From: Oscillatoriales cyanobacterium Centralia_MAG_596
Lineage (GTDB): Bacteria > Cyanobacteriota > Cyanobacteriia > Leptolyngbyales > Leptolyngbyaceae
DNA length: 64,000 nucleotides
Direction of reading: 5' to 3'
Assembly: GCA_021323955.1 (NCBI GenBank)
Contig: JAJPKC010000561.1
Span: 8,234 to 72,233 of the forward strand
Shown here: piece after piece, positions 27,139 through 60,304 of the stretch
How the letters are laid out: each line of letters opens with the position of its first letter
How positions within the stretch are numbered: the stretch's first letter is position 1
Notes under the pieces: generated by a model
What the model saw: the letters and a program-made list of their open reading frames with translations, nothing else
Database searches by the model: none
Told to the model about the DNA's origin: nothing
Translations under genes and position numbers: made by a program

Positions 27139-27155
27139 TGCCCTGGAGTTCCCCC
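27139..27155 (-). promoter_or_regulatory. putative late promoter (extended J-box-like)
   Basis: GGGGGAACTCCAGGGCA upstream of scaffold ATG. Confidence 0.7.
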
Positions 27156-27218
27156 ACAGCGATTGGTCGATTGACGCTGTTGCTCGTATCACCAATTTGG
27201 TTTGATGGTTGAGCGTCA

Positions 27219-27494
27219 CTAACTCGCACTAATGCCATCGACCCAACCGCGCAACCCGCCAGAATCGCTGACAACGACGCTATTGGGTAGTTGTCCAGAG
27301 CTGAGCGAGTTGGTCGGCACAGCGTTGCCATCAACGTCAACCATCAACACTCCCTGATCAGCGTTAAACCCCAGCGGTGTGCCTGCACGTTGCTGATTGC
27401 GTGCAGTCTGTACTCGCGCCCTGGCCGCCTGCTGTACTGCAAACTGAGCGCGATTATCCGATCGTTGTTGGGCCAGTAATTCTAAAACGTCCAT
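27219..27494 (-). CDS. small tail-tip protein, paralog of the N-terminus of the upstream gene
   Basis: DVLELLAQQRSDNRAQFA vs DVLQLLANQRSLNRANFA. Confidence 0.6.
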   Translation of the reverse strand: MDVLELLAQQRSDNRAQFAVQQAARARVQTARNQQRAGTPLGFNADQGVLMVDVDGNAVPTNSLSSGQLPNSVVVSDSGGLRGWVDGISAS

Positions 27495-27498
27495 AGCT

Positions 27499-28854
27499 TT
27501 AAGGGTGATAAGAACCGGCGTAGATTATTGGCTGTGCACCATTTGGCAAAGGTAGCGGATAGACCGCAATTTCGAGCTGCTCATACAGTGCAAATAGCGT
27601 GCTGTATGTGTTCAAGTGCAGCGTCGTGTTCTCAGTCCAATAGATCGCAGCGTAGAAGGTGCTGATGTCGCTGGGATCAAGCATTGTGAAGTTGCCATTG
27701 AACACGTCAATCAATGCAGGCACAACGAAGAAATCAGCATCCTCATCAACATTATTTTCATCAGGATCAACCCAGATGTATTGAGTGTTTCCAGGTAATG
27801 GATACAGGGTGTTTTGCCCTACACCCCCAGAACCATCAGCATTGATCCGGAGAATGATCTGATCCTGAATCGTGCCCGACACTGATGGCGTATCTAAGCC
27901 CGCGCCGTCGGATGAAACTATCGCAGTCACGATGTAATCGCCATAGTTTCGCGTCGTTACGGGACTACTAAACTCGCTGTCTCCCGGCAGTAAAAGCTGA
28001 TCGTAGCTATATTGAATTGTTGCGCTGGCGTTATTGTTGCTCGTGCCACCGTAGCCATAATCAACGATGTGGATCGTATTGGTGTAGGTGTAGCCGGGGA
28101 TGTCCATCACCTTCTGCACTTGATTGAACAGATAGAACTGCTGTGAGCTGCCGACTACCGTAGTCTCTGTGATCGTTATGGGCAGCGTCGTACCGCTGCT
28201 CTGTGAATTGGTCGAGCTGGGCTGCTCATTCAACGTTGCAGTGAAAAATCCATAGCCCTTAGAGACGCAAAGCACGGGCGTCTCGTGCTTATAATTGCGG
28301 CTACCGTCGCTCGAAATGACTTCAGCGTAGTAATGCCCCGCGATCGCGTAGCACAGGTCAACTTGCCAATCATCGCCGCCCAGGTTCGCTAAGGTTGCAT
28401 TCAGATCAAAGCCAACCTGATTCGCACTCACACCCGTCAGCGTTGCCACCAGCACTGGATCTGACTGCCACCCACCGACATAAATTTCAATCCCGTTGGC
28501 AGTGATGACACTCGCGAGAATCTTGATATTGGCAGGCGTGCTGCTGGTTGTAGTGGTCTTCGTCTGCACCCGCGCGGCTGGTCGCTGGTCAACCCGCACA
28601 GTACCGCCGGATGCATTGACCCTGACCGGTTGGCCCCGTTTCATCAAACCGCTGGTAGTGCTTACTCCCAGCAGTTGTGCGTCACCCCCTGATGGGGCGA
28701 TCGCCATCGTGCCTGAGTCAGCATCGCGCCCATAGTGCTCCCATTGCCGTGGCCTACTCGCTGCCACTTCCGCATGCGCTGACTGACTATCAGCAAAATT
28801 AGCGCGATTCAGCGATCGCTGATTGGCTAACAGTTGCAGCACGTCATCAATCAT
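27499..28854 (-). CDS. tail tip / spike-like protein
   Basis: Beta-rich, Thr/Ser-rich; ATG 28854 overlaps upstream TGA. Confidence 0.6.
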   Translation of the reverse strand: MIDDVLQLLANQRSLNRANFADSQSAHAEVAASRPRQWEHYGRDADSGTMAIAPSGGDAQLLGVSTTSGLMKRGQPVRVNASGGTVRVDQRPAARVQTKTTTTSSTPANIKILASVITANGIEIYVGGWQSDPVLVATLTGVSANQVGFDLNATLANLGGDDWQVDLCYAIAGHYYAEVISSDGSRNYKHETPVLCVSKGYGFFTATLNEQPSSTNSQSSGTTLPITITETTVVGSSQQFYLFNQVQKVMDIPGYTYTNTIHIVDYGYGGTSNNNASATIQYSYDQLLLPGDSEFSSPVTTRNYGDYIVTAIVSSDGAGLDTPSVSGTIQDQIILRINADGSGGVGQNTLYPLPGNTQYIWVDPDENNVDEDADFFVVPALIDVFNGNFTMLDPSDISTFYAAIYWTENTTLHLNTYSTLFALYEQLEIAVYPLPLPNGAQPIIYAGSYHP

Positions 28855-29267
28855 CAGGAATTCGAGAAGTAATAGATCGACTTCCAATCATTAACCGTCG
28901 AGCCGACCGCTACCCAGACCGTACAGCTCCCGCTCGACGTTCCACCGACAAAAAACTGACCGGCAAAGTCGGGTGCAATATTGTCGGCGATTGGATTTGT
29001 ACTGTCACTCCGATAGATGGGCATTCCCCCACCCCCAGTACTACCCCCACCGCTCGTTGTGGGTGTGCCAAGCGCTAACCATTGCCCATCACCGGTGCTC
29101 GGAGTCACGATTAGATTATCGTCGGGCGTCTGCACTGAGCCGCTGCTGAACTGATACCACGCTTTTTTTTCGAGGACTGCAATGCACATTAAATTGCAGC
29201 GGTCTTCTGGTGGGATCGCCTTTAAATCAGCCAAGTAATTGACTCCATAACCTGCGTAAGTCGTCAT
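28854..29267 (-). CDS. tail-associated hypothetical protein
   Basis: Coupled ORF; Gly-rich linker. Confidence 0.55.
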   Translation of the reverse strand: MTTYAGYGVNYLADLKAIPPEDRCNLMCIAVLEKKAWYQFSSGSVQTPDDNLIVTPSTGDGQWLALGTPTTSGGGSTGGGGMPIYRSDSTNPIADNIAPDFAGQFFVGGTSSGSCTVWVAVGSTVNDWKSIYYFSNS

Positions 29268-29974
29268 ACTCCTGGCCCATACACAGTGTTCATTTCGACC
29301 ACGGCAAGTTCATAGACATTCGGCTTGCTGTCCTGGATGATCACCGGATCAGATTCGATTTGCAGCAGCACAACCGAACCGGTCGCATAGCGCATCCTGA
29401 AGTTACCGCTACCCACATTTGAAATTGTCAGAGGCGTGCCATCGACTGTATTTGTCACCTGAAAAGTACCAGCGACATTGTTGACACTGGCTGCATAGTA
29501 GACCGTTGCAGCCGTTAACCCAGTCGGCAATGTGCTTCCTGGCAATGCTTCAAAAATGATGCTGTCATTTGTGGCGAGCAAATTGCTTGCGATTGTGATG
29601 TGGTTCGCGGCGGGGTCTACGTCTGTGGTGGTGAACGTCTCTTGCGCTTTGGCGTGTGCGTCTGCGAGCAGAAACGCGGTTTGAAATTGAATTGAGCCAC
29701 CAGAAGCCGTCCAAGTTGCCTCGATTAACGGCAACTCATGGCGTAAGTTTGTGTTTGAAAAACTGCCATCCTCTGGCCAGACCAGATTCTTACGCTGATA
29801 GCCGTATTGGGTTATTAGCTCTGCGTTCACAAAATCTGATAGAGGGCTAGAACGGCTTAAGCTCGTAGTGTCCGCAAAGCACAGTTGAAATTTGCCTGCT
29901 TGGGGTGGAGTTGCCCCCCGGTACATGACTTTCGCCTTACGGCTGATCCAATCGTTGTGATAGTAGGCAGACAT
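29264..29974 (-). CDS. tail-associated structural protein
   Basis: YQRKNLVW..FSN..ATWTASGGSIQF plus inserted beta module. Confidence 0.6.
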   Translation of the reverse strand: MSAYYHNDWISRKAKVMYRGATPPQAGKFQLCFADTTSLSRSSPLSDFVNAELITQYGYQRKNLVWPEDGSFSNTNLRHELPLIEATWTASGGSIQFQTAFLLADAHAKAQETFTTTDVDPAANHITIASNLLATNDSIIFEALPGSTLPTGLTAATVYYAASVNNVAGTFQVTNTVDGTPLTISNVGSGNFRMRYATGSVVLLQIESDPVIIQDSKPNVYELAVVEMNTVYGPGV

Positions 29975-29995
29975 GGCAGGCAGCTTTAGAAATAC

Positions 29996-30012
29996 TGCCC
30001 TGTCGTTCCCAC
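29996..30012 (-). promoter_or_regulatory. putative late promoter (extended J-box-like)
   Basis: GTGGGAACGACAGGGCA. Confidence 0.7.
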
Positions 30013-32932: not shown

Positions 32933-32949
32933 TGCCCTGGTGTTCCCGC
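32933..32949 (-). promoter_or_regulatory. putative late promoter (extended J-box-like)
   Basis: GCGGGAACACCAGGGCA, identical to 37239-37255. Confidence 0.7.
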
Positions 32950-33594: not shown

Positions 33595-34103
33595 TTTCCC
33601 AATTCTTCGTCGGAGGGGTTTTCTGGTGGTGCCGTTTCTTCAGCCCATCCCGTTTCCTCTCTATGGGCAAAGATGACAATTTCTTTGACCAGCGCTGGCG
33701 GAAGTAAATCGGTGTTTAGCGTGTCTTCGATCGTCCAGTCCTCATCCCGCATCACACGAAACCGCAGAATCGCCGTCGCTAATGCTAATGCCTTCTGGTC
33801 ATTAGCTTCATCAACTAAATCCTGGAAGATAATCAGTTCGCCAAGATAGTCACTCAGAGCCGTCATATCATTTTGGATGAGGGCAGAGTAGATGTCACTG
33901 AGCCGTGCTCCTTCTTTAGTTGCAATTTCGGCTGCCAGCTTTATCCCTTCTCTCCGTATATCGATCAAGTTTTGCTGCTTCAAAAATCGACGTTCTACAG
34001 GCGATAGGTCACCTAGTTTAGGGATATTCAAGATTCCAGTCGCTTCGTTGCCGACAGCAACGGTTTCAACAGCTTTAGGTTCAACAACAAATGGAAGTTT
34101 CAT
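33588..34103 (-). CDS. tail assembly chaperone (gpG-like)
   Basis: Follows tail tube; ends EELGNF*; start ATG 34103 (MKLPFVV). Confidence 0.75.
   Translation of the reverse strand: MKLPFVVEPKAVETVAVGNEATGILNIPKLGDLSPVERRFLKQQNLIDIRREGIKLAAEIATKEGARLSDIYSALIQNDMTALSDYLGELIIFQDLVDEANDQKALALATAILRFRVMRDEDWTIEDTLNTDLLPPALVKEIVIFAHREETGWAEETAPPENPSDEELGNF
33594..33600 (-). other. programmed -1 ribosomal frameshift site G GGA AAC
   Basis: X XXY YYZ heptamer in frame, one codon before TAG. Confidence 0.8.
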
Positions 34104-34125
34104 GGCAGTTTTTTGGCTCAACTGA

Positions 34126-34140
34126 CTGTGGAGTTCCCAC
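34126..34140 (-). promoter_or_regulatory. putative late promoter
   Basis: GTGGGAACTCCACAG upstream of chaperone ATG. Confidence 0.6.
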
Positions 34141-35136: not shown

Positions 35137-35168
35137 GGAAGCGGAATCCCTCGCGAGGGTGGTCGCTT

Positions 35169-35181
35169 GTGGTATTCCCTC
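35169..35181 (-). promoter_or_regulatory. putative late promoter, closest J-box match
   Basis: GAGGGAATACCAC (core GGGAATAC). Confidence 0.6.
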
Positions 35182-36582: not shown

Positions 36583-36769
36583 TGCCTTTAATTTTGCCCA
36601 ACCGCACCAAACCTATAAAAAGCAAAACCGCCGCACAGGAGAGATTAATGATCGCGTAGGGATTGAGCGGGTCGTGTGCTTTCAGCACATTGGCAATCCA
36701 GCCGCTAAAACTACTGCCAGCCATGACGAAATCTAAGATGGCGATTCGCTGATTTGACCAGTTAAACAT
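36554..36769 (-). CDS. small two-TM membrane protein (holin candidate)
   Basis: Two hydrophobic segments and a charged C-terminus. Confidence 0.45.
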   Translation of the reverse strand: MFNWSNQRIAILDFVMAGSSFSGWIANVLKAHDPLNPYAIINLSCAAVLLFIGLVRLGKIKGIEAEDNDEF

Positions 36770-37220
36770 TTGCCGACTCCTGTGAGTTTGCTAGTTTGAG
36801 CAAGGCACCCGCGATCGCGTTAATCGTCCACTCCATTGCCATACACTCAGTCTGTTCACTTGAGTCTGGTTCAAACGGTGCCATGTGCAGATGCAGCAAC
36901 TCATGGATCAGCGTCTCTTCAAGGTTGTAGGGTCGCATTGGGTTCTGCTTAACAGCATCTTCCGGTGTAACCAGCTTAATGTCTGCCGTTTTCTCGGTTA
37001 TGCGCCAGTGAATACAGCCCTGCGCTTGCGTACTGCTCATATCCATGGCAGGCACAACTTTTACAGTTACATCCCAATCAGCCAGCCTCAGCCGTTGCTG
37101 CCATTCTCGGCATTTCTGCTGCATCTGCTGTTCGAGCGTGAGTTCTGGTGGTGAGCACTTCTGCTGTGTCTGCTGTTCAAGTGCGATGTCCTGGTGGTGC
37201 AATTGTTTGGGTTCAGTCAT
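36762..37220 (-). CDS. zincin-like metallopeptidase
   Basis: EETLIHELLHLH (HExxH) with downstream E. Confidence 0.7.
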   Translation of the reverse strand: MTEPKQLHHQDIALEQQTQQKCSPPELTLEQQMQQKCREWQQRLRLADWDVTVKVVPAMDMSSTQAQGCIHWRITEKTADIKLVTPEDAVKQNPMRPYNLEETLIHELLHLHMAPFEPDSSEQTECMAMEWTINAIAGALLKLANSQESANV

Positions 37221-37238: not shown

Positions 37239-37255
37239 TGCCCTGGTGTTCCCGC
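37239..37255 (-). promoter_or_regulatory. putative late promoter (extended J-box-like)
   Basis: GCGGGAACACCAGGGCA. Confidence 0.7.
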
Positions 37256-38858: not shown

Positions 38859-39267
38859 ACTCCGCCCTCGATGTTTGAAACCATCCTACGATTTTAGTCC
38901 CAGCGCTCTCCTCCATCACTGCCCCAATTCCCTCCCTGCCGTAAGGTGGGTTAATCGGAACATTGAGGTAAAAGAAGCCTGGAGTGCCGCTCCAAGTGGC
39001 TACTGCCCAATTTTTGGGCAGAATGCTGAGTGGCAATTTCATCGGCTCCAGACAATAGCCTTCTAGATACAGTGCCGTCTCGTCAATTTCTGGAGCGCGC
39101 TGAATGGTATTGCCATAAGCGGGTACCTTGGCCTCAAGCATGGCGGTGACTCTGATGCTAGTAGTCTCCGCGATCGCATTGCCCACCTCATCAAAAGTAA
39201 TGTCGCCCGTCGGCACCTCAAAAGTGAGTGTGGTGTTGCGAACAAAATCAGGGAATGGGGTTGCCAT
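38851..39267 (-). CDS. head closure / stopper-like protein
   Basis: Size, beta-rich pattern and position. Confidence 0.55.
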   Translation of the reverse strand: MATPFPDFVRNTTLTFEVPTGDITFDEVGNAIAETTSIRVTAMLEAKVPAYGNTIQRAPEIDETALYLEGYCLEPMKLPLSILPKNWAVATWSGTPGFFYLNVPINPPYGREGIGAVMEESAGTKIVGWFQTSRAEYA

Positions 39268-39334
39268 ACAGAAAAGCCCTCTACTCAGAGGGCAGAATAT
39301 CGTTTGAATTTATTGCTCTAGCGTTCCCCGTTCC

Positions 39335-39971: not shown

Positions 39972-40637
39972 TCACGCGGCTAGAGTTCCCCGGTTGAGGA
40001 TGGTTGGGTTGGGTCGGTTGCTGCGTCGGTAATAGATCTGACATTTGCAGTGCTGCCCACACGCGCAGTTAGTGCCTGGAGGGACAACCTGGCTCGTCGG
40101 TCGCCATTCGCCATTGGTGCTGTGCTCAACACACGATCCGCAATGCCGTGCCTGTGGATCGAGCGATCGCAGCGCTTCATCAAACCCTTCATCCTCCCGG
40201 CTGATTTGCTCTGCCCGGTGAAAGGTAGTGTTAATCGAATCGGCGTAGCTGCCCGCACGTCTTAATGCCTGCTCTCGGGTTAACTTACCTTCGTACAGCG
40301 CCCGTGCAAAGCCGTCCACGTATTGATATTGGCGTCGTAGTTGATATCCGATTGCACCGAAATGCTGTGATTGAGCACGAGCCTGACCACCCGCGCCCAA
40401 AATGCCTATTCGCAAATGGCTATCCCGTAGGCTTTCGCTCATCCGTAGCTGCCATTCTGTCAGCGTGATCTGCTGGTTTGTCATCAAACGAGTATGAGCT
40501 TGCAAACGTACCTTGAGCTGCTGTTGTTCTTGATCTACCAGGTTGCGGATCACTTCTTTGCCCACGAATTTGCCATCGCTGCGGACATACCGACCAGCAC
40601 GGGGATTGTAAGAAATTTCTTCGGTGCTAAACGGCAT
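39972..40637 (-). CDS. minor head morphogenesis protein (MuF / SPP1 gp7-like)
   Basis: RHCGSC..VPPGTNCACGQHCKCQIYY terminal Cys cluster; near portal. Confidence 0.7.
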   Translation of the reverse strand: MPFSTEEISYNPRAGRYVRSDGKFVGKEVIRNLVDQEQQQLKVRLQAHTRLMTNQQITLTEWQLRMSESLRDSHLRIGILGAGGQARAQSQHFGAIGYQLRRQYQYVDGFARALYEGKLTREQALRRAGSYADSINTTFHRAEQISREDEGFDEALRSLDPQARHCGSCVEHSTNGEWRPTSQVVPPGTNCACGQHCKCQIYYRRSNRPNPTILNRGTLAA

Positions 40638-40640: not shown

Positions 40641-41033
40641 TCACTCGCATGGGGGTGGACTTTGGCCTAAACCGCCAGCCTCAATCGCCGGTTTATCGGT
40701 TGGCTGTGCGAAGACGCAACCTCGGAACCCTGGCACCAGCCAGCCTTTGGGATGCGCCTCCGTATCACCAGCGGTTACGCTGCCCGTGACCGCATAAACA
40801 TAATTGGGGCTTTCTAGCGCAATGCCTGCTTGTAGATCGTTAGCATTCGTGGCAAAGGCGTTGTGCTGCAAAAAGTAAAGTAGCTGGGCCTGGTTTGCTG
40901 CTCTGAGAGTGGTATATGCCTCAGCAGTTTTAGCTTTGTTTGCCTGAGTGAGCCACAGTGGGAGCGCGATCGCCGACAGCAACCCAATGATGATGACAAC
41001 GACAAGCAATTCAATCAGCGAAAAGCCTTTCAT
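40641..41033 (-). CDS. type IV pilin (Pilin_GH-like) with prepilin peptidase site
   Basis: MKG|FSLIELLVVVIIIGLLSAIALP..QANKAK..EA..NQAQ..YF..F..SPNYVY matches cyanobacterial PilA-like pilins. Confidence 0.9.
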   Translation of the reverse strand: MKGFSLIELLVVVIIIGLLSAIALPLWLTQANKAKTAEAYTTLRAANQAQLLYFLQHNAFATNANDLQAGIALESPNYVYAVTGSVTAGDTEAHPKGWLVPGFRGCVFAQPTDKPAIEAGGLGQSPPPCE

Positions 41034-41056
41034 GGAGCAGTAGTAGCAACTGCCTC

Positions 41057-41067
41057 AGCATTCCTAC
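41057..41067 (-). promoter_or_regulatory. J-box-like promoter of the pilin gene
   Basis: GTAGGAATGCT right after a terminator, 23 nt upstream of ATG. Confidence 0.55.
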
Positions 41068-41095
41068 AAAAAACCCACCGGGCTGCGCGGTGGGT
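41068..41095 (-). terminator. intrinsic terminator upstream of the pilin gene
   Basis: ACCCACCG-N7-CGGTGGGT then TTTTT on the minus strand. Confidence 0.8.
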
Positions 41096-41138
41096 AAGGT
41101 AAACCCATACAGGAGGCAATATGCTGATTGCAGCCGAC

Positions 41139-41312
41139 CTAGCGTTCCCTCACCTTTGCCTTGAGATAACGGCGTAAGCGTGGGTTCGCGGTGGTGATTG
41201 CCCGGTCCAGATCAGCCTGAGTGAAGTTAGAGAGCTTCATCAACGTTTCAAGCGCGATTGGCTGTCCTAATGGTTTGACTATTTGCTGACCCGGTTCTGT
41301 GGGTGCGCTCAT
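41139..41312 (-). CDS. 57-aa hypothetical protein (below the ORF-track cutoff)
   Basis: MSAPTEPGQQ..RRYLKAKVRER*; ATGA-coupled to 41309-41488. Confidence 0.5.
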   Translation of the reverse strand: MSAPTEPGQQIVKPLGQPIALETLMKLSNFTQADLDRAITTANPRLRRYLKAKVRER

Positions 41313-41488: not shown

Positions 41489-41535
41489 CGATTTTAGTTC
41501 CTAACGAATTGGCTGTACAGTCCGCTGTGGTATTC

Positions 41536-43038
41536 CTACGCGGCAACGGGCAACGTTTGAACGGCATGTCGTGCTGCTTCGGCTGCGATCGCGTCGGGTG
41601 TAGGCAACACGGTCTGGTTCTGGGCCTCAAGATCACCAATTTGCCGTAACTCTTCCTTGATATCCGTGTCTGGTGGCAGCCATTTCCGCTCTTGCAGCAT
41701 TTGTAACCCGAGCTGGTTGCTAATCTTGACCCCCATCGCATCCAAAATGGTCTGTACTTCCTGGGGACTCGCAGGCGTTTGCAGAATAGACTCGTTGACA
41801 GTGATCGTGCCGCCCTGGTCTTCTCCGGTGTACTGCACCCAGAGCGCAAAAAGTCGCTGCACAGTGGATTCCTTCCGACGTGCCATGTTTTTCAGGCTGC
41901 ACTGGGTTTGGGCAGTGTCCATCACCACTTCCGTTGCCGTTTTTGCCGCTTCCCCGCCAGTCAAGAAGGCTAGGGACATCCGATCCATGGAGCGTTCCAG
42001 CTTTTCAATATCGGTTTGGGTGGCATTAATGGCATTGCCCGTTGGCTCCGCAAAGAAAAAGTCCCCGTCTGCGGGGATGTCTACAACAGAGTTGGGACCG
42101 ATGATCAGCTTGACCACGCCTTTCAGCAGATCAGCGAGGTTTTTGATCAATCCTTTACGCACGGGCACAGGTAGATTGCATTTATGAATCACCTCATTGA
42201 GGCTCGATCGTTTCTGATAATGCTCAATATTCAACTGAGCCAGATTGAGAAACGGAGGCTGACTTTCAAACCATTTGCTATCGCTAACCGAGTACCAGAC
42301 AAACGGCACAACTTCTAAACCTGTTGCGCCGGATAGCTCCGGTACTAAAACCTTCTGATATTTGCCGCCCTGGATCTGTACCAGTTCATAAACATCAAAT
42401 CTGCCAGGGGTTAGCACCCGATAGTAAGTTTTGGTTTCGACGCCATAATCATCTACTGCTACCAGGCGGCTTTCCTGAATTGTTAAGCGTTGAATGATCG
42501 GCTTACCTTGCTCATAGATAATGCTCCAGTTAAGGATGTTGCGTCGATCGACGGCAACGAGGTACGGTCGTAGCGCATAGTTTTGCTCGTCAGCCGCACT
42601 TTGGATCAGTGGGTTGCCATTTTCATCGGTGGGTTGTGGCGGATGCTCCACCAGAATGCCCATCCCGCCGTCCCGCAGTACTGTCTCATCCTGGTCTGTC
42701 AGAAATGATTCAATGCTGCTGCCTTGCAGGTCGATGTCGTCGCGTGCAGCGGCGATCGACGGTGCCACATCGTCAGATAGAACAAACTCAGATAACAGTC
42801 CGGCGTGACCCTTCAGCGCTGGCTTAAAGCGCGAGTCGAACTGTGTCCGGGCAAGACGGTTTTTGTACGCAAGCGGTGGTTCTTCCTCTTCTTTAGAGAG
42901 GTAATCGCCTTTGCAGCCCTTTAGCTCCTGCCACACATCCCAAACGATTTGCAGTTCGTTTGCCGCGTCGAGATACGTGGGGTGCAGGAAAGAAGGCAGC
43001 GATGGATCTTTGGTGAGTGCGGGGGAAGAGGGATTCAT
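41536..43038 (-). CDS. portal protein (DUF4055-type)
   Basis: YLSKEEEEPPLAYKNRLART..RRNILNW..PPFLNLAQLNIEHYQKRS..AKTATE. Confidence 0.9.
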   Translation of the reverse strand: MNPSSPALTKDPSLPSFLHPTYLDAANELQIVWDVWQELKGCKGDYLSKEEEEPPLAYKNRLARTQFDSRFKPALKGHAGLLSEFVLSDDVAPSIAAARDDIDLQGSSIESFLTDQDETVLRDGGMGILVEHPPQPTDENGNPLIQSAADEQNYALRPYLVAVDRRNILNWSIIYEQGKPIIQRLTIQESRLVAVDDYGVETKTYYRVLTPGRFDVYELVQIQGGKYQKVLVPELSGATGLEVVPFVWYSVSDSKWFESQPPFLNLAQLNIEHYQKRSSLNEVIHKCNLPVPVRKGLIKNLADLLKGVVKLIIGPNSVVDIPADGDFFFAEPTGNAINATQTDIEKLERSMDRMSLAFLTGGEAAKTATEVVMDTAQTQCSLKNMARRKESTVQRLFALWVQYTGEDQGGTITVNESILQTPASPQEVQTILDAMGVKISNQLGLQMLQERKWLPPDTDIKEELRQIGDLEAQNQTVLPTPDAIAAEAARHAVQTLPVAA

Positions 43039-43054
43039 GCCCTGGGGTTCCCAC
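43038..43054 (-). promoter_or_regulatory. putative late promoter abutting the portal ATG
   Basis: GTGGGAACCCCAGGGC-ATG. Confidence 0.7.
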
Positions 43055-44614: not shown

Positions 44615-45343
44615 ATGCGAACTACCCAAGCTTTAGCCGTTGCAATCGTATTGATGTCTCTACCAGGCTGTATGAGATCGGGTGAATTTGCGGTGCCTGC
44701 TCCTGCTGTTGGTGATATTGCCGAAGGGATTAGCAAGGCTTGGCAAGGGCAGGATCAAGCGCCTGCCACTGTTCCAGCTCAACCAGCACCGGCACCAGCT
44801 CAGCCGAATGTCCCCGCAACCGGGACAGCGATCGCGCTGTCTGAGATGCAAGCAAAACGGCACTCCAGAGCCAGCGCCGAGGATTTTCAAGAAATCGACG
44901 GGGTGAAAGAGGCTCACCCTGCTCGAAATGCGGGGGAGTGCGAAAGGCTAAGACTCTGGTTTTTTCAGCACAATCTTCGGTTGACACTGCGGATCAAGTC
45001 CAATCCAATGCCGGGAAACCGGCGACAAGTGCTCTGTGTCTTTCTTGGCAAAGACGCAAGGGCGAACCGCTTTGCCTACAACGATATGTATCGTGAAATT
45101 GGGATTCCGTACCCGGAGAGTGCCGCTGAGTACCCTGAAAATCCTTATGTTGATCGAACACACCCGTTTGAAAATCCCCCCAATGGGATTCCCAAATACA
45201 TTGAAGATCCGAATTGGCATGATACGCAGCGACTCCAGCCACAGCCCCCGCCGATTCCCGACGATACCGCTCCATTTACCGATGAAGATGCTGCGCGGTT
45301 GAGGGATCTTGACGAATACAATCGCAGACATCCAAAGCAGTAG
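44615..45343 (+). CDS. lipoprotein
   Basis: Signal peptide with lipobox LPGC; Pro-rich linker. Confidence 0.75.
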   Translation: MRTTQALAVAIVLMSLPGCMRSGEFAVPAPAVGDIAEGISKAWQGQDQAPATVPAQPAPAPAQPNVPATGTAIALSEMQAKRHSRASAEDFQEIDGVKEAHPARNAGECERLRLWFFQHNLRLTLRIKSNPMPGNRRQVLCVFLGKDARANRFAYNDMYREIGIPYPESAAEYPENPYVDRTHPFENPPNGIPKYIEDPNWHDTQRLQPQPPPIPDDTAPFTDEDAARLRDLDEYNRRHPKQ

Positions 45344-51900: not shown

Positions 51901-54900
51901 CATTCGACTTTTGAATCGCCGTGAGCGCTGAGGCTGGCAATGTTGGCACAGCCGCGCTTTTAGCCCCATCTTGAAACGCTTTGAGTTTCGCACTGTCACC
52001 AACTTCAGCTAATACCTTGTCGATCGACACGCCAAAGTCAGTAAACGCTAACTCGCGCGCCAGGTCTTCTTTCTTCAGGCTCCTCGCCCGTGAACTGGTA
52101 ATACCAACGCGCTTGGCAATCTCGCGCAAACCAGCGGCGGAATACTGGCTATTGAGTTCTTCAAACCGCTGTTCTTTGCCGCTGGGACTCGATACGACTT
52201 CAACTTGAGGGCTTTGAGCTGATGCAGGCGACGGCGGCAACGCGGTAATGGCGCTCTCAGGTGTGTTAGCCGGTGCTGGAGGAAGTGCTTTTGCCTGGGT
52301 TGGAGGAAGTGCTGCTAAATTGTTAACCGCTTGCGCTGCGCCACCCAATGTGCGACCCGCAGCCGTTTGAATGACTTTGCCACCCAGCAGGGCCGCACCA
52401 GCCTGAGCCACTCCGGCTGAGGCCGCGTTAACGGCACTATCAATCGCCCCTGTCAGCGCTGTGGTAATGCCGTTCGCCAATCCAAACGCATTAGGCACAT
52501 GACCTGCGATCGCTGACGTTGCTGCGTCGGTTGCCCCTGCACCGGCTGCATGGAGTAACGGCGATGCCACTCCGCCAACGACATGACTCAGCCCTGCTGC
52601 GACACTCGCACCACCGGGAAGTAATGCCGTTGCGCCCGCAAACAAGGCGGCAGGCACAACCGTTTGTTGGGCGATCGCTTTGATTGCTCGTCCGGCTGGA
52701 ACAAGATCCAGCGCCAGGGCTTCCATGCCGGACGCAACGGTATAACCCACCTTCCCAACAGCCAATAGCGCCTTGCCTGCGGTTCCTGCTGCCTGTACTG
52801 CATTTTGCACAGGTGCAGAGGTTGCTATGTCCTGGACTTTGCTGGCTGTCGCGCCTGCCAGTTCAACGGCTCCTCTGGCAACGCCCCCGGCTGTTTGAGC
52901 CAGTGCCGCACGTTGTTCCTGCCGCTCTAATTGCTGCTGTGCTTTGGTTCTAGTCAGTTCAAAAACTTTTGGCTCTAACTGCCTGGGGTCAGCGGTTGTC
53001 GTTAGCTGCTGAATTAGCTCCTTTTTCTTAAGAGAGCCAGCATCTTGGACGCCAAATTGCTCCGCCAGTGGCGTTAGCTCTTTCTTACTAAATTGCTTGA
53101 GCAGTCCAGCAAGTTCCTGCTGCCGCTCTTGGAGTGCGTCTTCAGGAGCGATCGCCTGCACGCGTTGAATCTCGCTTCGCACCTGGTCGAAGATGTGGCT
53201 GAGGGAACCGATCGCCTGGTTCATTTCTTCCTGCAATGCAGCAACTTCTTCGCGAGTTGCCGTGCCTGCCGATTGGGCCGCTCTTTGAGAAATTGATTCG
53301 ATCTCGGTGAGCGACTCTTTGTAGCTGTCGATGAACTGGCCGATTGCCTCATCCGATTCCACAAATCGCTTTGAGGCTTCTTGTTTAAGGGTGATCAGTG
53401 CGTCTTTGAAAACCGCCTTGCGTGCAGGAGCCGTAAACTTCTCACCCTGAACTGCCACATCGCTGGCATCGCTGATTGCTTGCAGCCGATCCTGCCGTTG
53501 CAGGTAATCTTCGGCCCCCCTTGCGCCCTTGACTTTGGCGTTTAGCTCTGCCTCTCGTTTTTCGGGTGCATACCGCCCTAGCTCTGGTGCAAACCTGGTT
53601 GCTTCTTCGGCTGTAGGAGTAACTTTGCGCCCGATCGGACGGCTATCTTTCGCTGCCTGGATGCCCTTGAAAGACCCAAAATCGAAGTCTTCAGCGTGGG
53701 CAATCTCTTCCCCTAATACCTCTGCCTGTTGCTGCGTTAGGGATGCGCTTTTGACCGCCTCATAAATTTTGTTGGTCGTGATGATGGCATTTTCAGCCGG
53801 GACGTAAAGTGACCCTGCGCCAACGGCTTTAAGCCGCGCTTCGTCAACAACTAATTTGGGCAGTTTGTCAGCATCAAAGGCTTCACCAAGCGTGCTTTGA
53901 GCCAGTTCGGCGTAAGCCCTGGACTGTTGCTGCGGGCTAACCTGATCGAGTTGTTGTCGTGCGGCAAGGCGTTTCTGCTTTGCCTCTTGCACGGCATTGG
54001 TGGCAATATCCCGTGCCTGTACCAGTGCAGTGAGGGACTGCGATAGCTGCTGAAAGTCCTGTGCTGTGGCATTAAGTTGAGCGGCTAATGGTTCAATGTC
54101 TGCAACCTTAGCCCCGCCTGCCTCCGCTTTCTGAATGGCGATCGCGAGCTGCTCGTATTGTTGCCCTACTTCTGCAACCTCTCGCTGTCTGACGGCAATC
54201 TGCTGTTCTAATGTGGCTTTGCTCTGTGTAGCGCGAGCTTCGACACTTTTGCTGGTGGCGATCGATTCACGAAATTCGGTAACTGCTTCCTCTCTCAAGA
54301 CAGGAGTTTTGGCTTGCTCCGTCTGCCTACGCTGCCCCCGCTGGAATAATCCTTCCCGATTGATATTGTCTTGACCGATCGTCCCTTGAACGGCTTGCCC
54401 AACTTGCCCAGGCAGCTCAACCACTGACTGAAGCTGTTCTCGCAGTTTGGTTCGTAGTTTGCCGTCCTGAATTTTGTCGATCTGCTGTTCCAGTACCTGA
54501 GCCAGGTTCTGAGTTTGAGTTTGAAACTCCTGCACTACGGCAGAACCGATTGCACCCCCAACCTTCTCCCCCAACAGTTCGGAACTGCCAACGCTCTTAG
54601 ACAGTGCTCCTTCCAGTGCGGTAGACAGTCCCTTACCCAAATTCCGCGAGACTTCCTGGGTGGCTCCTAGCGTTAGACCACTCAAGGTAGTGCTCAAAGC
54701 GCCGCCTGCCAGCTTGAGCGGAGCCGTCAGCACACTGCCTAATCCACTGAGTAATCCTCCACCCTTAACCCGCTGAAATGCTCGTTCAACGCTGTTACCC
54801 AGCGAGTCTTCAATGCCCTTCGTGTCAATCTCAACCTTTTGGGTCAGAGCTGCTAAGGGTTGGGCATTGGCGTAGCGGAGAACCACTGGCACATCTAAGG

Positions 54901-55447: not shown

Positions 55448-55473
55448 CCCGAACGCCCAAAACCGTGCAGAGT

Positions 55474-55484
55474 AGAGTTCCTAC
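55474..55484 (-). promoter_or_regulatory. putative late promoter of the tape measure gene
   Basis: TTTGTAGGAACTCT; shares TTTGTAGGAA with the pilin promoter. Confidence 0.55.
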
Positions 55485-56242: not shown

Positions 56243-56719
56243 CTACAAACCAAGCTTTTCAGCCGTGCGCTTAGCCCGGGTGATTGCAGGTTTCAATTCT
56301 TGTGCTCGTGCGCGTCGGGCATGGTGGATTCTCGCTTCAGCGATCGCGTCTTCCAGCAACCCTGGTCTATCTTGCGCCACGGCCCACAATCCTTGCAGAA
56401 GTGTTTCTGGTGTAACGCCTGCCTGGTCAGCCGCCTGCTGGATTTGGCGTTTATACCCCTCTTCAACGCGCAACTGAAAGTTAACGACCTTTGGCAAGGC
56501 TGCCAGTTCTCGCTCCAGTGCCGAGATGCCAAAGTCTACAGGTGCGGCAGTTAAGTTGTTTGACCGTTCTTTGACAGGCATTGATTTAGCAGGTGTTGAA
56601 TCAGCTTCTGTGGCTGGACTACCTGTATTTGATTGTAGCGAGGCGGACACCTCGTCAACTCGTTTTTCTACAGTTGGCCGAGTGCGGTTCATGAAGCGAT
56701 CGGCTGCGGTCGGTTTCAT
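56243..56719 (-). CDS. putative centromere-binding adaptor (ParG/ParB type Ib-like, RHH)
   Basis: Coupled to parA; VNFQLRVEEGYKRQIQQAADQAGVTPETLLQ fits RHH. Confidence 0.65.
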   Translation of the reverse strand: MKPTAADRFMNRTRPTVEKRVDEVSASLQSNTGSPATEADSTPAKSMPVKERSNNLTAAPVDFGISALERELAALPKVVNFQLRVEEGYKRQIQQAADQAGVTPETLLQGLWAVAQDRPGLLEDAIAEARIHHARRARAQELKPAITRAKRTAEKLGL

Positions 56720-57531
56720 ACAGGGACTACCTCACTATGAATGGCTGGTACGTACTTGCTCAGACGCTCTAACAGCACGTCGAAAGGCGCTTCCAGCTCC
56801 GCTTTATCGGCATCAAGCTCAGAAGGCAATTGTCCATAATTGAGAGCCTTTTGATAGATAACGGACTCAACTACTGAGGGCAGTATCGTTGCGCCAATGA
56901 AGCTCTCCATCTTGGCAAGCGTGCTCGAGGCCTCACCTGTAAGATGCAATCCAACCACTCGTGCCCGGAAAGGCAGAACGCCAATCAGTTCACCGTCAAA
57001 CGCGTCTCCGTCACGACATTCTTCCAGCAGCGCCCAGGTCTCGGTTAATGACCCCAGCCCTTTCGCAACGGCCTCGGCTGGAATGACGACCACATCTGCC
57101 GCACCGATCGCAGTCAGATTGATGTGATTCTTCTGCGGTGGCGAGTCAATCATAATCAGCCCAAAATCCTGCATGACAGGCTCCAGGCGTTTTTTCAATA
57201 CACGTGAGCAATTCGCTGACGAAGCCAGGTAATGCTGAGCATTGACCAAGGCTCGATCCGAAGGGACGAGAAAGAGATTTTCGCGATCGGGAACAGGGTA
57301 AATCGCGTCCTCAATCGAGCATTTGTTTGTGATGACTTCTAGCAGTGTGGGCTGATTTTCCACTTCAACGCCCAGAAGGTCGGTCAAATTCCGTTGAGGA
57401 TCGCCGTCGATTAGTAGGGTTGGTATACCGAGCTTAGACACTTTCAATCCAATCATATAGGCGGTCAGAGTCTTGCCCTGTCCTCCGCTCAACGACAGCG
57501 ACAGCGCGATCGTTGCTTGGTTGTTTGGCAT
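56716..57531 (-). CDS. parA: ParA/Soj partition ATPase
   Basis: Deviant Walker A SLSGGQGKT, LIDGDPQRNLT, IMIDSPP; start ATG 57531. Confidence 0.92.
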   Translation of the reverse strand: MPNNQATIALSLSLSGGQGKTLTAYMIGLKVSKLGIPTLLIDGDPQRNLTDLLGVEVENQPTLLEVITNKCSIEDAIYPVPDRENLFLVPSDRALVNAQHYLASSANCSRVLKKRLEPVMQDFGLIMIDSPPQKNHINLTAIGAADVVVIPAEAVAKGLGSLTETWALLEECRDGDAFDGELIGVLPFRARVVGLHLTGEASSTLAKMESFIGATILPSVVESVIYQKALNYGQLPSELDADKAELEAPFDVLLERLSKYVPAIHSEVVPV

Positions 57532-57592
57532 ATTGCATCCTTGCACTGATGAATGCATGTAAGTTTGCAGTGTTGTGATCTTATATTCAAAG

Positions 57593-57625
57593 TTGCTTGA
57601 ATGCAAGCATTCAAGCATTCAAGCA
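57593..57625. repeat. ATTCAAGC array upstream of parA
   Basis: GCTTGAAT gcaagc ATTCAAGC ATTCAAGC. Confidence 0.85.
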
Positions 57626-57662
57626 GCTAGGACTAGAAGTCGCCATGAATGAGGATAACAAG

Positions 57663-57693
57663 CCCAACTGGGGACAATTTGTCCCCAGTTGGG
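57663..57693. repeat. 31-bp palindrome (15-bp perfect arms, 1-nt centre)
   Basis: CCCAACTGGGGACAA-T-TTGTCCCCAGTTGGG. Confidence 0.9.
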
Positions 57694-57720
57694 AACGTCC
57701 ACTGTTAGAACTTTTGACGC

Positions 57721-57760
57721 ATTCAAGCATTCAAGCATTCAAGCATTCAAGTATTCAAGC
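57721..57760. repeat. 5 x ATTCAAG(C/T) tandem array
   Basis: ATTCAAGC x3, ATTCAAGT, ATTCAAGC. Confidence 0.9.
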
Positions 57761-58085
57761 ATTTTTGAAGAATGGGGTTATGTTGTGGATATGGCTGAGG
57801 GAATACCAGAGCAGCGTTACCCAACCTGCCATGCAAACCTTTGCGCTTTGTACAGCCGTTTTCACCTCCGAACCATTCCAGAAGTTACCTGATCGCAAGG
57901 TTGCTGATGTTGTTGAAGAAGATAGTGGTCTCGTGCGATTAACCTATCTACACCCTGCAATCAAAAGTCCACAAATTTATCAGTCGATGGACGAGTTGAA
58001 ACAGATTTACTGTGGTGACGGTAGTAAATTCAGATTGGTTTTTCAATCATAGTGGTCATACTTGACACTCATTGATCTCGCCCTC

Positions 58086-58403
58086 TCAAAGGGCGATTTT
58101 TGTAATGCACTGACGGCTCAGTTGATCAAGGTCAAGGTAGCCGTCCGTAATCAGGCCAGACTCTAGCAAGCAAAGGTAGAGGGCCAAAGCGACATCCGCT
58201 TCTAGCTTGGCAGCAAGCCGCTGAAAGTAGTCCGTCTCCTGAGGCGTCAAATCTGTCATGCTGCTATCGCGAAAGTGATGAATTTGTTGCAGGAGTCGAA
58301 TCAGCTTCGTAGCGGCATCTCTGCAATGCATGGTGGATTGGGCGATCGCTTGCAAATCAGAGTTACTGAAAACAAAGGGCTGTAGCTTGAGCTTGAGTCT
58401 CAT
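58086..58403 (-). CDS. hypothetical protein
   Basis: Coupled to upstream ORF. Confidence 0.55.
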   Translation of the reverse strand: MRLKLKLQPFVFSNSDLQAIAQSTMHCRDAATKLIRLLQQIHHFRDSSMTDLTPQETDYFQRLAAKLEADVALALYLCLLESGLITDGYLDLDQLSRQCITKIAL

Positions 58404-59140
58404 CAGAACCTTCTAGGGCGTTTAGGTTGCAAGACATGGGATGGTCCCAACGCCTGCTTTGTATAAAAATCCAGCCACTTCAACCAGTCAATTTTGTTGA
58501 TGAATTCAGTGACGTTACTGTGCTTGCCTGGAGACATCCTTCCTAAACGAGCCACAATCACCCGCGTAATTTTTCGTGCGGCGTGGTGGCGTGCATTCCA
58601 GTAACGGGAGTTCCCTTCCAAATCACAGATGATGGCACAACGACATTCAGTGCGGCGAACCATGCGATCGCGACCTGTCTGATCCGTCTGTTTGAACCGT
58701 CGTCGGCTAATCCACGTGACCATAAATATGTGTTCACCGGCAGCCATCTCATCTCCCATTGAACTCGCAGTCGGAGTTGCGTCCACCGACTCAACGGACA
58801 GGCTGTTTTGCCAATCAGTATAGGTAGGAGCGCTTGGATCTGTGGATCGATAACGTCCGAGGTCTTCGCGCAGCCAGGGGACGTAGATGAGGGTAACGAG
58901 CAAGTCTCGCCAGCAGTAACGGTGGATGATGCGCCAGCTTTCAACAACCCCGGGCGCGTCTGATTCCAGCCTAAGAATAGTCGCGTAGTCGGTAAATAGC
59001 TCCTCAAGGATTTTCGGTTCTGGCTCAGCACCGAGCCGTTCTCGAAACCAGTTGAGCAAGCGTTGGATGAATCGCTGAAAAGTGTTTCCGTTTCCATTAG
59101 AGGCTGTCACAGGAGTAAATTCGATAGGGTTGTTGGTCAA
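58403..59140 (-). CDS. hypothetical protein
   Basis: 245-aa ORF. Confidence 0.65.
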   Translation of the reverse strand: MTNNPIEFTPVTASNGNGNTFQRFIQRLLNWFRERLGAEPEPKILEELFTDYATILRLESDAPGVVESWRIIHRYCWRDLLVTLIYVPWLREDLGRYRSTDPSAPTYTDWQNSLSVESVDATPTASSMGDEMAAGEHIFMVTWISRRRFKQTDQTGRDRMVRRTECRCAIICDLEGNSRYWNARHHAARKITRVIVARLGRMSPGKHSNVTEFINKIDWLKWLDFYTKQALGPSHVLQPKRPRRF

Positions 59141-59149
59141 GACCCTCAG

Positions 59150-59494
59150 CTATTTCGGAAATAGCTGTTTATAGGCATTGATGCGATCTGTTGGAGCGAG
59201 CCGTACAACTGCAGCCGCCAGGGCAATGACGCCAAACCAGCCAGCTCCTTCCTGCCAGGTAAAATTCTCGCTGTTGGCCCGACGAGAAGCTGGCACCAAC
59301 AAAACCGTCAAAACAGCAAAATGGACCAGGATCTCAACCGGATCAATGGGTTGTCCAAAAATACGGATGCGATTTGCCTTTGCACGATTGGGGCAATCGA
59401 TTGGACAGTGTGGAGGGGAATCTTGTGGACTAGAGCCTGGTTCAGACATGGTGATTCCTATTGATAACTCTCCAGGATTCCCGCACGCAGGCAC
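59150..59494 (-). CDS. two-TM membrane protein (holin candidate)
   Basis: Two hydrophobic helices; true start probably MSEPG. Confidence 0.5.
   Translation of the reverse strand: MPACGNPGELSIGITMSEPGSSPQDSPPHCPIDCPNRAKANRIRIFGQPIDPVEILVHFAVLTVLLVPASRRANSENFTWQEGAGWFGVIALAAAVVRLAPTDRINAYKQLFPK
59472..59484 (-). promoter_or_regulatory. J-box-like promoter after the sigma terminator
   Basis: GCGGGAATCCTGG. Confidence 0.5.
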
Positions 59495-59496
59495 GC

Positions 59497-59520
59497 AAAA
59501 AAGCCCCTAATGAGGGGCTT
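59497..59520 (-). terminator. terminator of the sigma factor gene
   Basis: AAGCCCCT-N4-AGGGGCTT plus U run on the minus strand. Confidence 0.8.
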
Positions 59521-59557
59521 GAAAAGGGAGTAATGATAGCCTTACTAGACCTTAAAA

Positions 59558-60304
59558 CTAACTGATTAATGCGACCAGCGCCTTCTGCAAGGTCTGTTTT
59601 ACAGCCCCAGGCTCGATCTGCAACTGGAGAGCAATGGCCTTGCGGCTTTGCCGCTGGAAGTAGATGCCCTGAATCAGTGATCGCTCAACCGGAGATAACC
59701 GATCCACTCGTTGCCGCAATTGGCTCCATGCTGAATCTAAGCGTGCACTTGATTCTTGCTGGTCTGCATAAGTTGAAGGGTCTGCAATTTCTAACGGTTT
59801 GTGGTCTAACGAAATAGCCTGCTGGTTGCCGATCGCCTCACGCACCACGCGCAATTTCTTGACCTCGACTCCCATCAAATCGGCAACCATCTGATCGTCA
59901 GGGATACGGCCATGATGGCGCTCGGCCCAGGCCCGTTCGACTACGTTTGCATTGGCATGCAGTTCACGCCAGCGCCGGGGGATTTTAATGCCTGTCCCGT
60001 GGTCCCGTAGAAAATGAAGGATTTCGCCGCGAATGTAGGGGACGGCAAAGGAGCTAAAGGCCACGCCTTTGGTGGGGTCAAATCGCTCGATTGCTCGGAG
60101 CGCCCCACAAAAGCCAATCTGCTCTAAATCTTCGTAGCTCTCAGTACAGCGGTTCTTCATTCGATGCGCAATTTCCCGCACCAGATTCATGTGGTCAAGC
60201 GCCACCTCGTTCCGCAACTGCGCATCCTGCTGCTGGGAGACCGTTCTTTGTTTGTAGTATCTCCAGAGCTTCTCTGAAGGGTTACGGGTTGGCGCGGCTA
60301 TCAT
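59558..60304 (-). CDS. group 3 sigma factor, SigF/SigJ (SigB/F/G-like)
   Basis: Region 2 LVREIAHR..YEDLEQIG..RAIERFDPTKGVAFSSFAVPYIRGEILHFLRD; region 3 VKIPR; region 4 LSPVERSLIQGIYFQRQSRKAIA. Confidence 0.9.
   Translation of the reverse strand: MIAAPTRNPSEKLWRYYKQRTVSQQQDAQLRNEVALDHMNLVREIAHRMKNRCTESYEDLEQIGFCGALRAIERFDPTKGVAFSSFAVPYIRGEILHFLRDHGTGIKIPRRWRELHANANVVERAWAERHHGRIPDDQMVADLMGVEVKKLRVVREAIGNQQAISLDHKPLEIADPSTYADQQESSARLDSAWSQLRQRVDRLSPVERSLIQGIYFQRQSRKAIALQLQIEPGAVKQTLQKALVALIS

Follow-up and report, generated by a model that had tools for sequence, protein, structure and literature searches.

The stretch of DNA analysed here, to which we refer as the window, is 64,000 nt long and corresponds to bases 8234-72233 of a contig (C32) that was binned into a cyanobacterial metagenome-assembled genome (MAG). 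The window carries a cyanophage gene for a small group-3 sigma factor and, in front of many phage genes, recurring copies of a short sequence element that we call the box. We propose that the boxes are extended -10, -35-independent promoters of the J-Box type with the consensus (GT)RGGAAYnCYAG(nGCR), which would be read by the sigma factor of the phage, and we assign a probability of about 0.6 to this reading as a whole. Taken by itself, the box is very probably a promoter of the group-3 type.

The strongest form of the box is the 15-mer GGGAACNNCAGGGCA, of which the window contains five copies, every one on the minus strand and 14-37 nt ahead of a gene start. When read on the coding strand, each copy is located between a stop codon and the following ATG. 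In the whole 6.96 Mb assembly, the exact 15-mer is confined to these five places and the reversed control sequence does not occur. By allowing up to two mismatches, eight matches were found in the window against 1.97 expected, and this number was reached in none of 100 shuffles. The looser consensus is (GT)RGGAAYnCYAG, and its RGGAAYnCY core has 21 sites on the minus and five sites on the plus strand of the window. Of the 21 sites on the minus strand, eight precede the ATG of an open reading frame (ORF) of at least 90 aa by 29-46 nt, whereas 0.78 would be expected (P=5e-7) and reversed-motif controls gave none. The recurrence just upstream of gene starts, which had been noticed by the sequence-only reading of this DNA, is thus borne out.

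In total, 17 copies precede genes, one of them standing ahead of a short terminated unit (Table 1). A scan of C32 picked up 17 sites, of which 13 have G and four have A at position 1, and position 9 is T in six and C in nine of them. Position 8 is C in most copies. Since GGAA at positions 2-5 was demanded by the search pattern, its invariance carries no weight. The five extended copies listed by the sequence-only reading (43038-52, 37239-53, 32933-47, 29996-30010 and 27139-53, all on the minus strand) were recovered, as were its eight shorter copies, which all fit RGGAAYnCY. Among the latter, the copies assigned to a "chaperone" and a "tail tube" gene are real, but the genes behind them actually begin with the ATGs at 34103 and 35136. 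The box had also been described as standing in front of virion sub-modules. This is mostly the case, but four further copies (41523-37 and 41135-49 on the minus strand, 4721-35 and 57799-813 on the plus strand) reveal that it is not confined to virion genes. Thus, the regulon would also comprise a 347-aa gene of the integrase/replication arm, the gene just downstream of the sigma factor gene, a small plus-strand gene and the pilin gene, which the closest relative lacks.

A known element that resembles the box is the J-Box of Nostoc punctiforme, an extended -10 promoter with the consensus GGGaAtacT that depends on SigJ, or on SigF where SigJ is missing (Gonzalez et al. 2019, PMC6495340). In the J-Box, GGG constitutes the extended -10 and aAtacT the -10 hexamer, the -35 region is weak, the mapped start lies 10 bp from the centre of the hexamer, and both the A at position 5 and the T at position 9 are nearly invariant (PMC6495340). 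The likeness to the J-Box had been noticed before and amounts to agreement at 7-8 of nine positions. Both elements share the core GGG(A/a)A(T/C)nC(T/C), a strict orientation, a weak or absent -35 region and a purine about 10 bp from the centre of the hexamer. Moreover, the J-Box is read by a group-3 sigma factor of the SigF/SigJ subfamily, and the same is proposed for the phage box. Unlike the J-Box, the phage box is phage-borne, may have A at position 1 (TAGGAAY is dominant in the related genome G010), mostly has C at position 6 and, in its strongest copies, has C at position 9 in place of the nearly invariant T. Furthermore, it possesses extra conserved bases (G and T just ahead of it, GC(A/G) at positions 13-15 and, between these, AG at positions 10-11), it keeps a fixed short distance to the ATG and it is combined with a hairpin over the predicted start site. 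Across 165 aligned sites, no column from -40 to -3 exceeds 0.05 bits. As there is no information upstream of position -2, the box has no -35 element.

By analogy with the J-Box, positions 1-3 of the box would form the extension and positions 4-9 the -10 hexamer, and transcription would start at position 15 or 16. The sequence-only reading had expected the start 5-8 nt downstream of the core, but the published J-Box geometry would place it 9-10 nt after GGGAAC. Both the promoter function of the box and the position of the predicted start site are what we infer from these comparisons. The portal gene is instructive in this respect. In seven phages (C32, G001, G003, G004, G005, G008 and L131), the box lies 8-9 nt before the portal ATG, which is the sole start codon in the open frame at most of the portal loci checked. 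This puts the portal ATG at position 15 or 16 of the box and, given a transcription start there, would imply that the portal mRNA of these phages is leaderless and begins with AUG. In the prophage of Nostoc sp. FACHB-110, the portal gene starts with TTG and is preceded by a leader. The entire gap in G004 and G008 consists of a terminator, the box and the portal ATG. A T-run, mostly belonging to a clear terminator, ends at most 35 nt upstream in 11 of 61 boxes, compared to 4% in the background.

The host itself uses similar sites. In all contigs of the MAG except C32, GGGAAYnCT is enriched upstream of genes (16% vs. 5-9% in controls) and 41% of the GGGAATACT sites are non-coding, compared to a baseline of 16%. 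Moreover, A is found at position 16, where the J-Box geometry puts the start, in 24 of the 45 non-coding GGGAAYnCT sites. A different register with GGGAAC as the -10 hexamer and a 5'-terminal hairpin was also considered. Judging from the portal spacing and from the enrichment of A at position 16 of the host sites, it is less likely than the J-Box register.

The box is conserved in related phages. By searching IMG/VR with a profile of the sigma clade and by a search with a portal profile, 15 records were fetched, which together with C32 make 16 genomes. In these 16 sigma-encoding genomes, 69 RGGAAYnCY sites are located 29-46 nt before long ORFs starting with ATG, compared to about 11 expected, and the reversed motif gave five of 155. 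Counted from its first base, the box lies at a distance to the ATG that peaks sharply at 33-37 nt, and the aligned sites have G and T two and one bases upstream, respectively, followed by RGGAAY, t, C, Y, A, G, n, G and C. GGGAAC ranks 1-10 among the 4096 hexamers in the 50-nt upstream windows of seven genomes, and GTAGGA or TAGGAA is the top hexamer in C32 and in four other genomes. Ten related cyanophage or prophage records, each with a homologous sigma factor gene, show an enrichment of the box at a fixed distance from the ATG, and the box co-occurs with the phage sigma factor in every genome showing box enrichment. Members of this phage family are also carried by contigs of Leptolyngbya sp. 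FACHB-36, Nostoc sp. FACHB-110, Nostoc sp. CHAB 5844 and Pelatocladus. The FACHB-36 locus (L161) represents the DNA of G005, and the FACHB-110 locus (L164) that of G014. In G001, whose sigma factor is 72% identical to that of C32, almost all boxes are found at orthologous positions and show one to three changes in the 3' part. The pairwise similarity of C32 and G001 begins abruptly 2-3 bases upstream of the box and runs through the leader into the gene. The orthologue of the gene at 36762-37220 is tandemly duplicated in G001 (2689-3520), and each of the two copies possesses its own box (2701 and 3431).

The sequence-only reading correctly recognised a group-3 sigma factor gene at 59558-60304 on the minus strand. 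The protein matches the Pfam domains Sigma70_r2 (E=1.8e-17) and r4_2 (E=1.1e-6), weakly r3 (E=8e-4), and phrog_351 (3.7e-40). It contains the sigma-70 regions 2, 3 and 4 and lacks region 1.1 and a long N-terminus. It is 38% identical to the SigF orthologue of the host (contig C542) and 35% identical to a second group-3 paralogue of the host (C438), which may be SigJ. The phage sigma clade comprises about twenty metagenomic proteins with 40-75% identity and is followed by cellular SigF proteins with 39-43%. All clade members score higher against the SigF orthologue than against the C438 paralogue. By tblastn against 50,697 phage records, the phage sigma factor gave only matches below 35% identity (Bacillus, Microcystis and other phages). 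Taken together, the comparisons support that it is a divergent member of the cyanobacterial SigF/SigJ subfamily.

An alignment revealed that regions 2.1-2.4 and the KIPRRW segment are nearly identical in the phage and both host group-3 sigma factors. The -10-recognition segment reads AFSSFAVPYIRGEILHFLRDH..IKIPRRW in the phage and AFSSFAVPYIRGEMLHFLRDR..VKIPRRW and AFSSFAIPYIRGEIQHYLRDK..VRIPRRW in the host proteins. The recognition helix of region 4.2 is SPMTVTRRIHRG in the host and EPGAVKQTLQKA in the phage, and the host-like basic residues are lost in the phage clade. In G004, G007 and G011, region 4 is shortened or missing (the open frame of G011 has 171 aa), which could be due to a real truncation or to a problem of assembly or frame. 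When sigma residues were compared by eye with the box variant (GGGAAC vs. TAGGAAY), mixed motif usage and the small number of genomes gave no ground for claiming covariation. The phage sigma factor is linked to the box because a host-like reader of the -10 region together with a degenerate reader of the -35 region would fit an extended -10 promoter without -35 element, and because both co-occur. Thus, the phage protein is probably the main reader of the box. Inspection of the upstream sequence revealed no box directly in front of the sigma factor gene itself and no convincing sigma-70-type site within about 600 nt.

Several observations weigh against the phage sigma factor as the reader of a J-Box-type promoter. 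The best NCBIfam model, NF005644 (cyanobacterial SigF subfamily), gives the phage protein 194.3 bits, which is under the curated cutoff of 261, whereas the host group-3 paralogues score 400 and 417 bits. Therefore, the phage sigma factor is a divergent relative rather than an orthologue. All relatives from the portal-profile search that are more than half complete encode a sigma factor, and they provide no sigma-less control. The records without a sigma factor are fragments (9-41% complete). The most distant relatives, G015 and G016, encode a divergent sigma factor but do not have the box, and their portal gene is preceded by TATAAT-N4-ATG, a canonical -10 in nearly the same register as the box. 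Many copies deviate from the J-Box in having C rather than its nearly invariant T at position 9. The host has J-Box-type sites of its own and two group-3 sigma factors, which could read the copies with T at position 9 without the phage factor. Finally, the narrow spacing between box and ATG and a hairpin that starts from positions 7-13 would also suit an element acting at the RNA level or a 5'-terminal stabiliser. As to G015 (L146-L150), AGTAGCCTATAGTGATAACAGATAGAAAAAACCACT is repeated before several of its genes (e.g. 45024-45059, 54058-54093 and 73046-73081), and ACCACT occurs 11 times in its upstream windows, compared to 1.25 expected. G015 looks like a case of a different promoter system within the same phage lineage.

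Some of these observations could be explained if the boxes were J-Box promoters read by SigJ and/or SigF of the host. The phage sigma factor would then have a different task, such as acting on host genes or on another promoter class, and late expression would be tied to the motility or stress programme of the host. The identity of the box with the host J-Box at 7-8 of nine positions, the two group-3 sigma factors and the enriched J-Box-like sites of the host MAG, the nearly identical -10-reading regions of host and phage sigma factors and the presence of a sigma factor without box in G015 and G016 are all consistent with a host reader. However, C occupies position 9 in the strongest copies, and host genes show no upstream enrichment of GGGAAYnCC (5% vs. 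16% for GGGAAYnCT). Moreover, the phage sigma factor accompanies the box in every enriched genome, and it would be fragile to rely on a conditionally active host sigma factor for all virion genes. A copy of its own as the reader would also explain why the sigma factor gene is conserved at 35-72% identity across the phage family. We therefore consider a host reader to be rather unlikely and the phage sigma factor to be the better candidate.

Most boxes are followed by an inverted repeat, of which the 5' arm lies in positions 7-14 and the 3' arm ends 1-8 nt before the ATG. When folded from position 7 to the ATG, the sequences reach a mean of -6.8 kcal/mol, compared to -4.4 for shuffles and -3.4 for box-less upstream regions (P=7e-9). 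From position 15 to the ATG the mean is -1.5 vs. -1.9 for shuffles, and this part is no more structured than shuffled sequence. The arms of the hairpin differ between genes. One compensatory change was found when the gene at 29264-29974 was compared with its orthologues (GGCAG/CTGCC in C32 vs. CAGCAG/CTGCTG in G001, G002 and G003). With a start at position 15 or 16, the hairpin would form only in RNA arriving from upstream. In this read-through RNA, it would mask the start region just before the ATG, and RNA initiated at the box would lack the 5' arm. For a role as a 5'-terminal stabiliser, transcription would have to start nearer to the box than expected from the J-Box geometry. Given the portal spacing and the signal at position 16 of the host sites, the masking of read-through RNA is the preferred role of the hairpin. 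A promoter inside a hairpin would not be without precedent: McPheeters and co-workers reportedly described in 1986 that the late promoter of gene e of phage T4 is located in a hairpin, by which the ribosome-binding site of early read-through RNA is masked. The T4 genes soc and I-TevI show the same arrangement. As in gene e, the 5' arm behind the phage box is upstream of or at the predicted start and the 3' arm is just before the ATG. Unlike in T4, where few genes are concerned, the arrangement would be regulon-wide, and some of the phage boxes follow a terminator, where such gating seems to be unnecessary.

The hairpin also allows for an explanation without any promoter. RGGAAY and the hairpin could constitute a processing site, a stabiliser of the 5' end after cleavage or the operator of an RNA-binding protein in polycistronic transcripts. 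The hairpin starting at positions 7-13 in most copies, its folding energy relative to shuffles, the compensatory change and the narrow distance to the ATG would be expected for such an element. However, the junctions consisting of terminator, box and gene leave scant read-through RNA for processing, and in seven phages the portal box abuts the ATG without a hairpin. Furthermore, no Rfam family reached the gathering score in a scan of the whole window, and a specific RNA-binding protein is unlikely because the hairpin sequences are not conserved. Both the likeness to a promoter class and the match between a missing -35 element and a degenerate region 4 would have to be coincidence. Thus, an RNA element in place of a promoter is very unlikely.

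It is also conceivable that the box is the site of a DNA-binding activator or repressor of the phage that is unrelated to the sigma factor, with the real promoters being located elsewhere. Late activators, for instance of the RinA and Mor/C families, are also typically associated with short conserved boxes in front of late genes (RinA: PMC3152322), and most genes of this phage are unannotated. However, the box is asymmetric, strictly oriented towards the gene and only about 11-15 bp long. At a distance of 14-40 nt from the ATG no other promoter fits, especially between the terminator and the portal ATG. Moreover, sigma-70-like promoters are not enriched in the module: eight were found in 24-44 kb, compared to 13.6 expected from shuffles, and they are if anything under-represented. 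An activator or repressor site is therefore highly improbable, and a promoter read by the phage sigma factor is preferred.

The sequence-only reading had suggested that the CAGGGCA extension of the strongest boxes may give phage specificity. The extension is common to the relatives G001, G003 and G010 and is thus not peculiar to this phage. Moreover, it overlaps the predicted discriminator and start site as well as the 5' arm of the hairpin. Phage specificity may be one possible reading of it. The trait that separates many phage copies from the J-Boxes of the host is C instead of T at position 9.

The proposed order of events is as follows. The sigma factor gene would be expressed first, presumably from a host-type promoter because it has no box. 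The phage sigma factor would then direct the core RNA polymerase of the host to the boxes, which would result in a distributed middle/late programme that includes the virion genes plus a few others. About 17 transcription units would arise in this way, most of them with unstructured leaders of about 18-25 nt that usually have no Shine-Dalgarno sequence. Judged by reading the upstream sequences, the genes right behind a box are mostly devoid of a Shine-Dalgarno sequence, as in the leaders at 37220, 32914, 29974, 27116 and 55447. Such a sequence is present before several genes in the interior of these operons, with AGGAG-like words ahead of 35608 and 35877. A bolder proposal, which we regard as doubtful, combines two layers of control at each box, namely T and C promoter classes with start-dependent translation, together with cross-talk with the J-Boxes of the host. 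In this proposal, boxes with T at the predicted -7 position (position 9) may also be readable by SigJ/SigF of the host, and those with C and AGGGC by the phage sigma factor only. The genes for the pilin and the giant protein may thereby be wired into the motility/hormogonium circuit of the host. The inverted repeat could make translation of the first cistron dependent on the start of the RNA, and the T4 gene e arrangement would thereby apply to a whole regulon. Finally, the phage sigma factor might switch on J-Box genes of the host, for instance type IV pilus genes.

C32 has 73.4 kb and is the longest of the 704 contigs in the 6.96 Mb MAG. Its density of HIP1 octamers (1.06 per kb) resembles that of the host (1.08 per kb). 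C32 aligns almost end to end with G001, a complete 89.5 kb virus of IMG/VR with a 127-bp terminal repeat, at about 75% nucleotide identity. Due to this near-full-length alignment, C32 is read as phage DNA without host flanks. It would comprise roughly 73 of about 89 kb of the genome of a cyanophage whose host is a HIP1-rich filamentous cyanobacterium. With 20 kb as the query, megablast gave no match in the 50,697 phage records, and thus no close cultured relative. The plus-strand arm (1-20.6 kb) encodes a tyrosine recombinase, a DUF3854 helicase-like protein and an exonuclease. The genes for the major head protein, scaffold, portal, type IV pilin, ParA, the sigma factor, a protein with a weak major-tail match and a giant protein of 3156 aa lie on the minus-strand arm (20.8-60.3 kb). 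Both a tyrosine recombinase (3260-4312, plus strand) and a ParA-type ATPase (56243-57618, minus strand) are encoded, and an integrated or plasmid-like prophage state is possible. Several relatives are classed as proviruses by IMG/VR.

Pfam and PHROGs support the labels portal, scaffold, capsid (major head protein) and pilin and, weakly, major tail protein, and gave nothing for most of the genes behind boxes. The labels "peptidase", "Dit-like" and "chaperone", which had been given to three of the genes, have no Pfam or PHROG match, and for the genes called "adaptor" and "closure" the sole matches were PHROG families of unknown function. A terminator and a box of its own flank the type IV pilin gene (Pilin_GH, N_methyl; region 40641-41095, minus strand). 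G001 has no counterpart, as the blastn alignment skips the gene. The pilin gene looks like a self-contained accessory gene ("moron") with a J-Box-like promoter. Two homologues of the pilin are encoded by the host, and their N-termini could not be placed. The unit behind the box at 41135-49 has only a 14-codon ORF before the terminator and could be a candidate short transcript, either a small RNA or the message of a micro-peptide. The leader at 39267-39328 contains a terminator-like hairpin with a U-run at 39293-39276, which is kept in G001 (2211-2270) and could be an attenuator. The gap of 455 nt between the scaffold and major head genes (25825-26279) is kept in G001, and its sole ORF has 79 aa. 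The word GGCGGGATGCC is present both in this gap and in the scaffold leader.

Table 1 The phage sigma factor gene and the box copies in the window
Feature	Position	Strand	Sequence	Context
Phage sigma factor gene, 248 aa, group-3 SigF/SigJ-like	59558..60304	-		Pfam, phrog_351, NCBIfam
Box	59468..59482	-	GGGAATCCTGGAGAG	Just past the terminator of the sigma gene; 33 nt ahead of ATG 59449, 99-aa gene; G001 equivalent GGGAAGGCTAGAG
Box	57799..57813	+	GGGAATACCAGAGCA	32 nt ahead of ATG 57831, 73-aa ORF beside parA; G001 at 79201
Box	55468..55482	-	AGGAACTCTACTCTG	35 nt ahead of ATG 55447, 3156-aa giant protein
Box	43038..43052	-	GGGAACCCCAGGGCA	Final A is the A of the portal ATG
Box	41523..41537	-	AGGAATACCACAGCG	End of portal gene; 49 nt ahead of 59-aa ORF, ATG 41488; G001 counterpart at 467
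Box	41135..41149	-	GGGAACGCTAGGTCG	Terminator 41095-41073 about 40-70 nt later; G001 counterpart at 823
Box	41051..41065	-	AGGAATGCTGAGGCA	Right behind terminator; 32 nt ahead of pilin ATG 41033
Box	39976..39990	-	GGGAACTCTAGCCGC	34 nt ahead of TTG 39956, 137-aa gene
Box	39314..39328	-	GGGAACGCTAGAGCA	61 nt ahead of ATG 39267; G001 counterpart at 2211
Box	37239..37253	-	GGGAACACCAGGGCA	33 nt ahead of ATG 37220, 152-aa gene; G001 orthologues at 2701, 3431
Box	35165..35179	-	GGGAATACCACAAGC	43 nt ahead of ATG 35136, 305 aa, weak major tail match; G001 at 4861
Box	34124..34138	-	GGGAACTCCACAGTC	35 nt ahead of ATG 34103, 171-aa gene; G001 at 7619
Box	32933..32947	-	GGGAACACCAGGGCA	33 nt ahead of ATG 32914, 163-aa gene; then hairpin GGGCAG/CTGCCC
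Box	29996..30010	-	GGGAACGACAGGGCA	36 nt ahead of ATG 29974, 236-aa gene; orthologous boxes in G001, G003, G002
Box	27139..27153	-	GGGAACTCCAGGGCA	37 nt ahead of scaffold ATG 27116; box and leader kept in G001, upstream not
Box	25849..25863	-	GGGAACGCAACCAAC	39 nt ahead of major head protein ATG 25824
Box	4721..4735	+	AGGAACCCTAGAGCG	37 nt ahead of ATG 4758, 347-aa gene, integrase/replication arm; G001 at 50828

Genes for group-3 sigma factors have been noted in cyanophages since at least 2009, and the regulon was left open in the case of the Prochlorococcus siphovirus P-SS2 (PMC2784084). The P-SS2 sigma factor has diverged from that of the host, and a specific regulon was proposed for it (Sullivan et al. 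2009, PMC2784084). Like P-SS2, the phage described here is a cyanobacterial siphovirus-type phage with a group-3 sigma factor. In contrast, no cognate promoter was identified for P-SS2 (PMC2784084). P-SS2 is not a close relative, as there were no near matches among the 50,697 phage records. A full-text literature search yielded no description of promoters for a cyanophage group-3 sigma factor or of a J-Box-type promoter set in a phage. The locus and more than ten related phages or prophages of Leptolyngbya, Nostoc and Pelatocladus provide an explicit promoter model with about 17 transcription units and the prediction of a leaderless portal mRNA. The box system extends across the whole phage family and would be one of a phage sigma factor with cognate promoters of a host-variant class. 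If validated, a -35-free promoter of about 15 bp and a small sigma factor could be developed into an orthogonal expression switch for filamentous cyanobacteria.

In phages of other bacteria, sigma factors are known that have cognate middle or late promoters, namely gp28 and gp33/34 of SPO1, gp55 of T4 and gp36 of phiEco32. As in these systems, the phage encodes a sigma factor, a repeated box precedes the late genes and the sigma factor gene itself has no box. Moreover, it is proposed that the phage sigma factor likewise redirects the core polymerase of the host. Unlike the sigma factors of SPO1, T4 and phiEco32, the protein is close to a host group-3 sigma factor, being 38% identical to SigF, and its proposed promoter is a variant of a host class. 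Since the promoter varies a host class, cross-talk with the SigF/SigJ regulons of the host is possible in both directions, and the kinship with the host J-Box raises the question of whether the development of the phage communicates with the pilus/motility regulon of its host.

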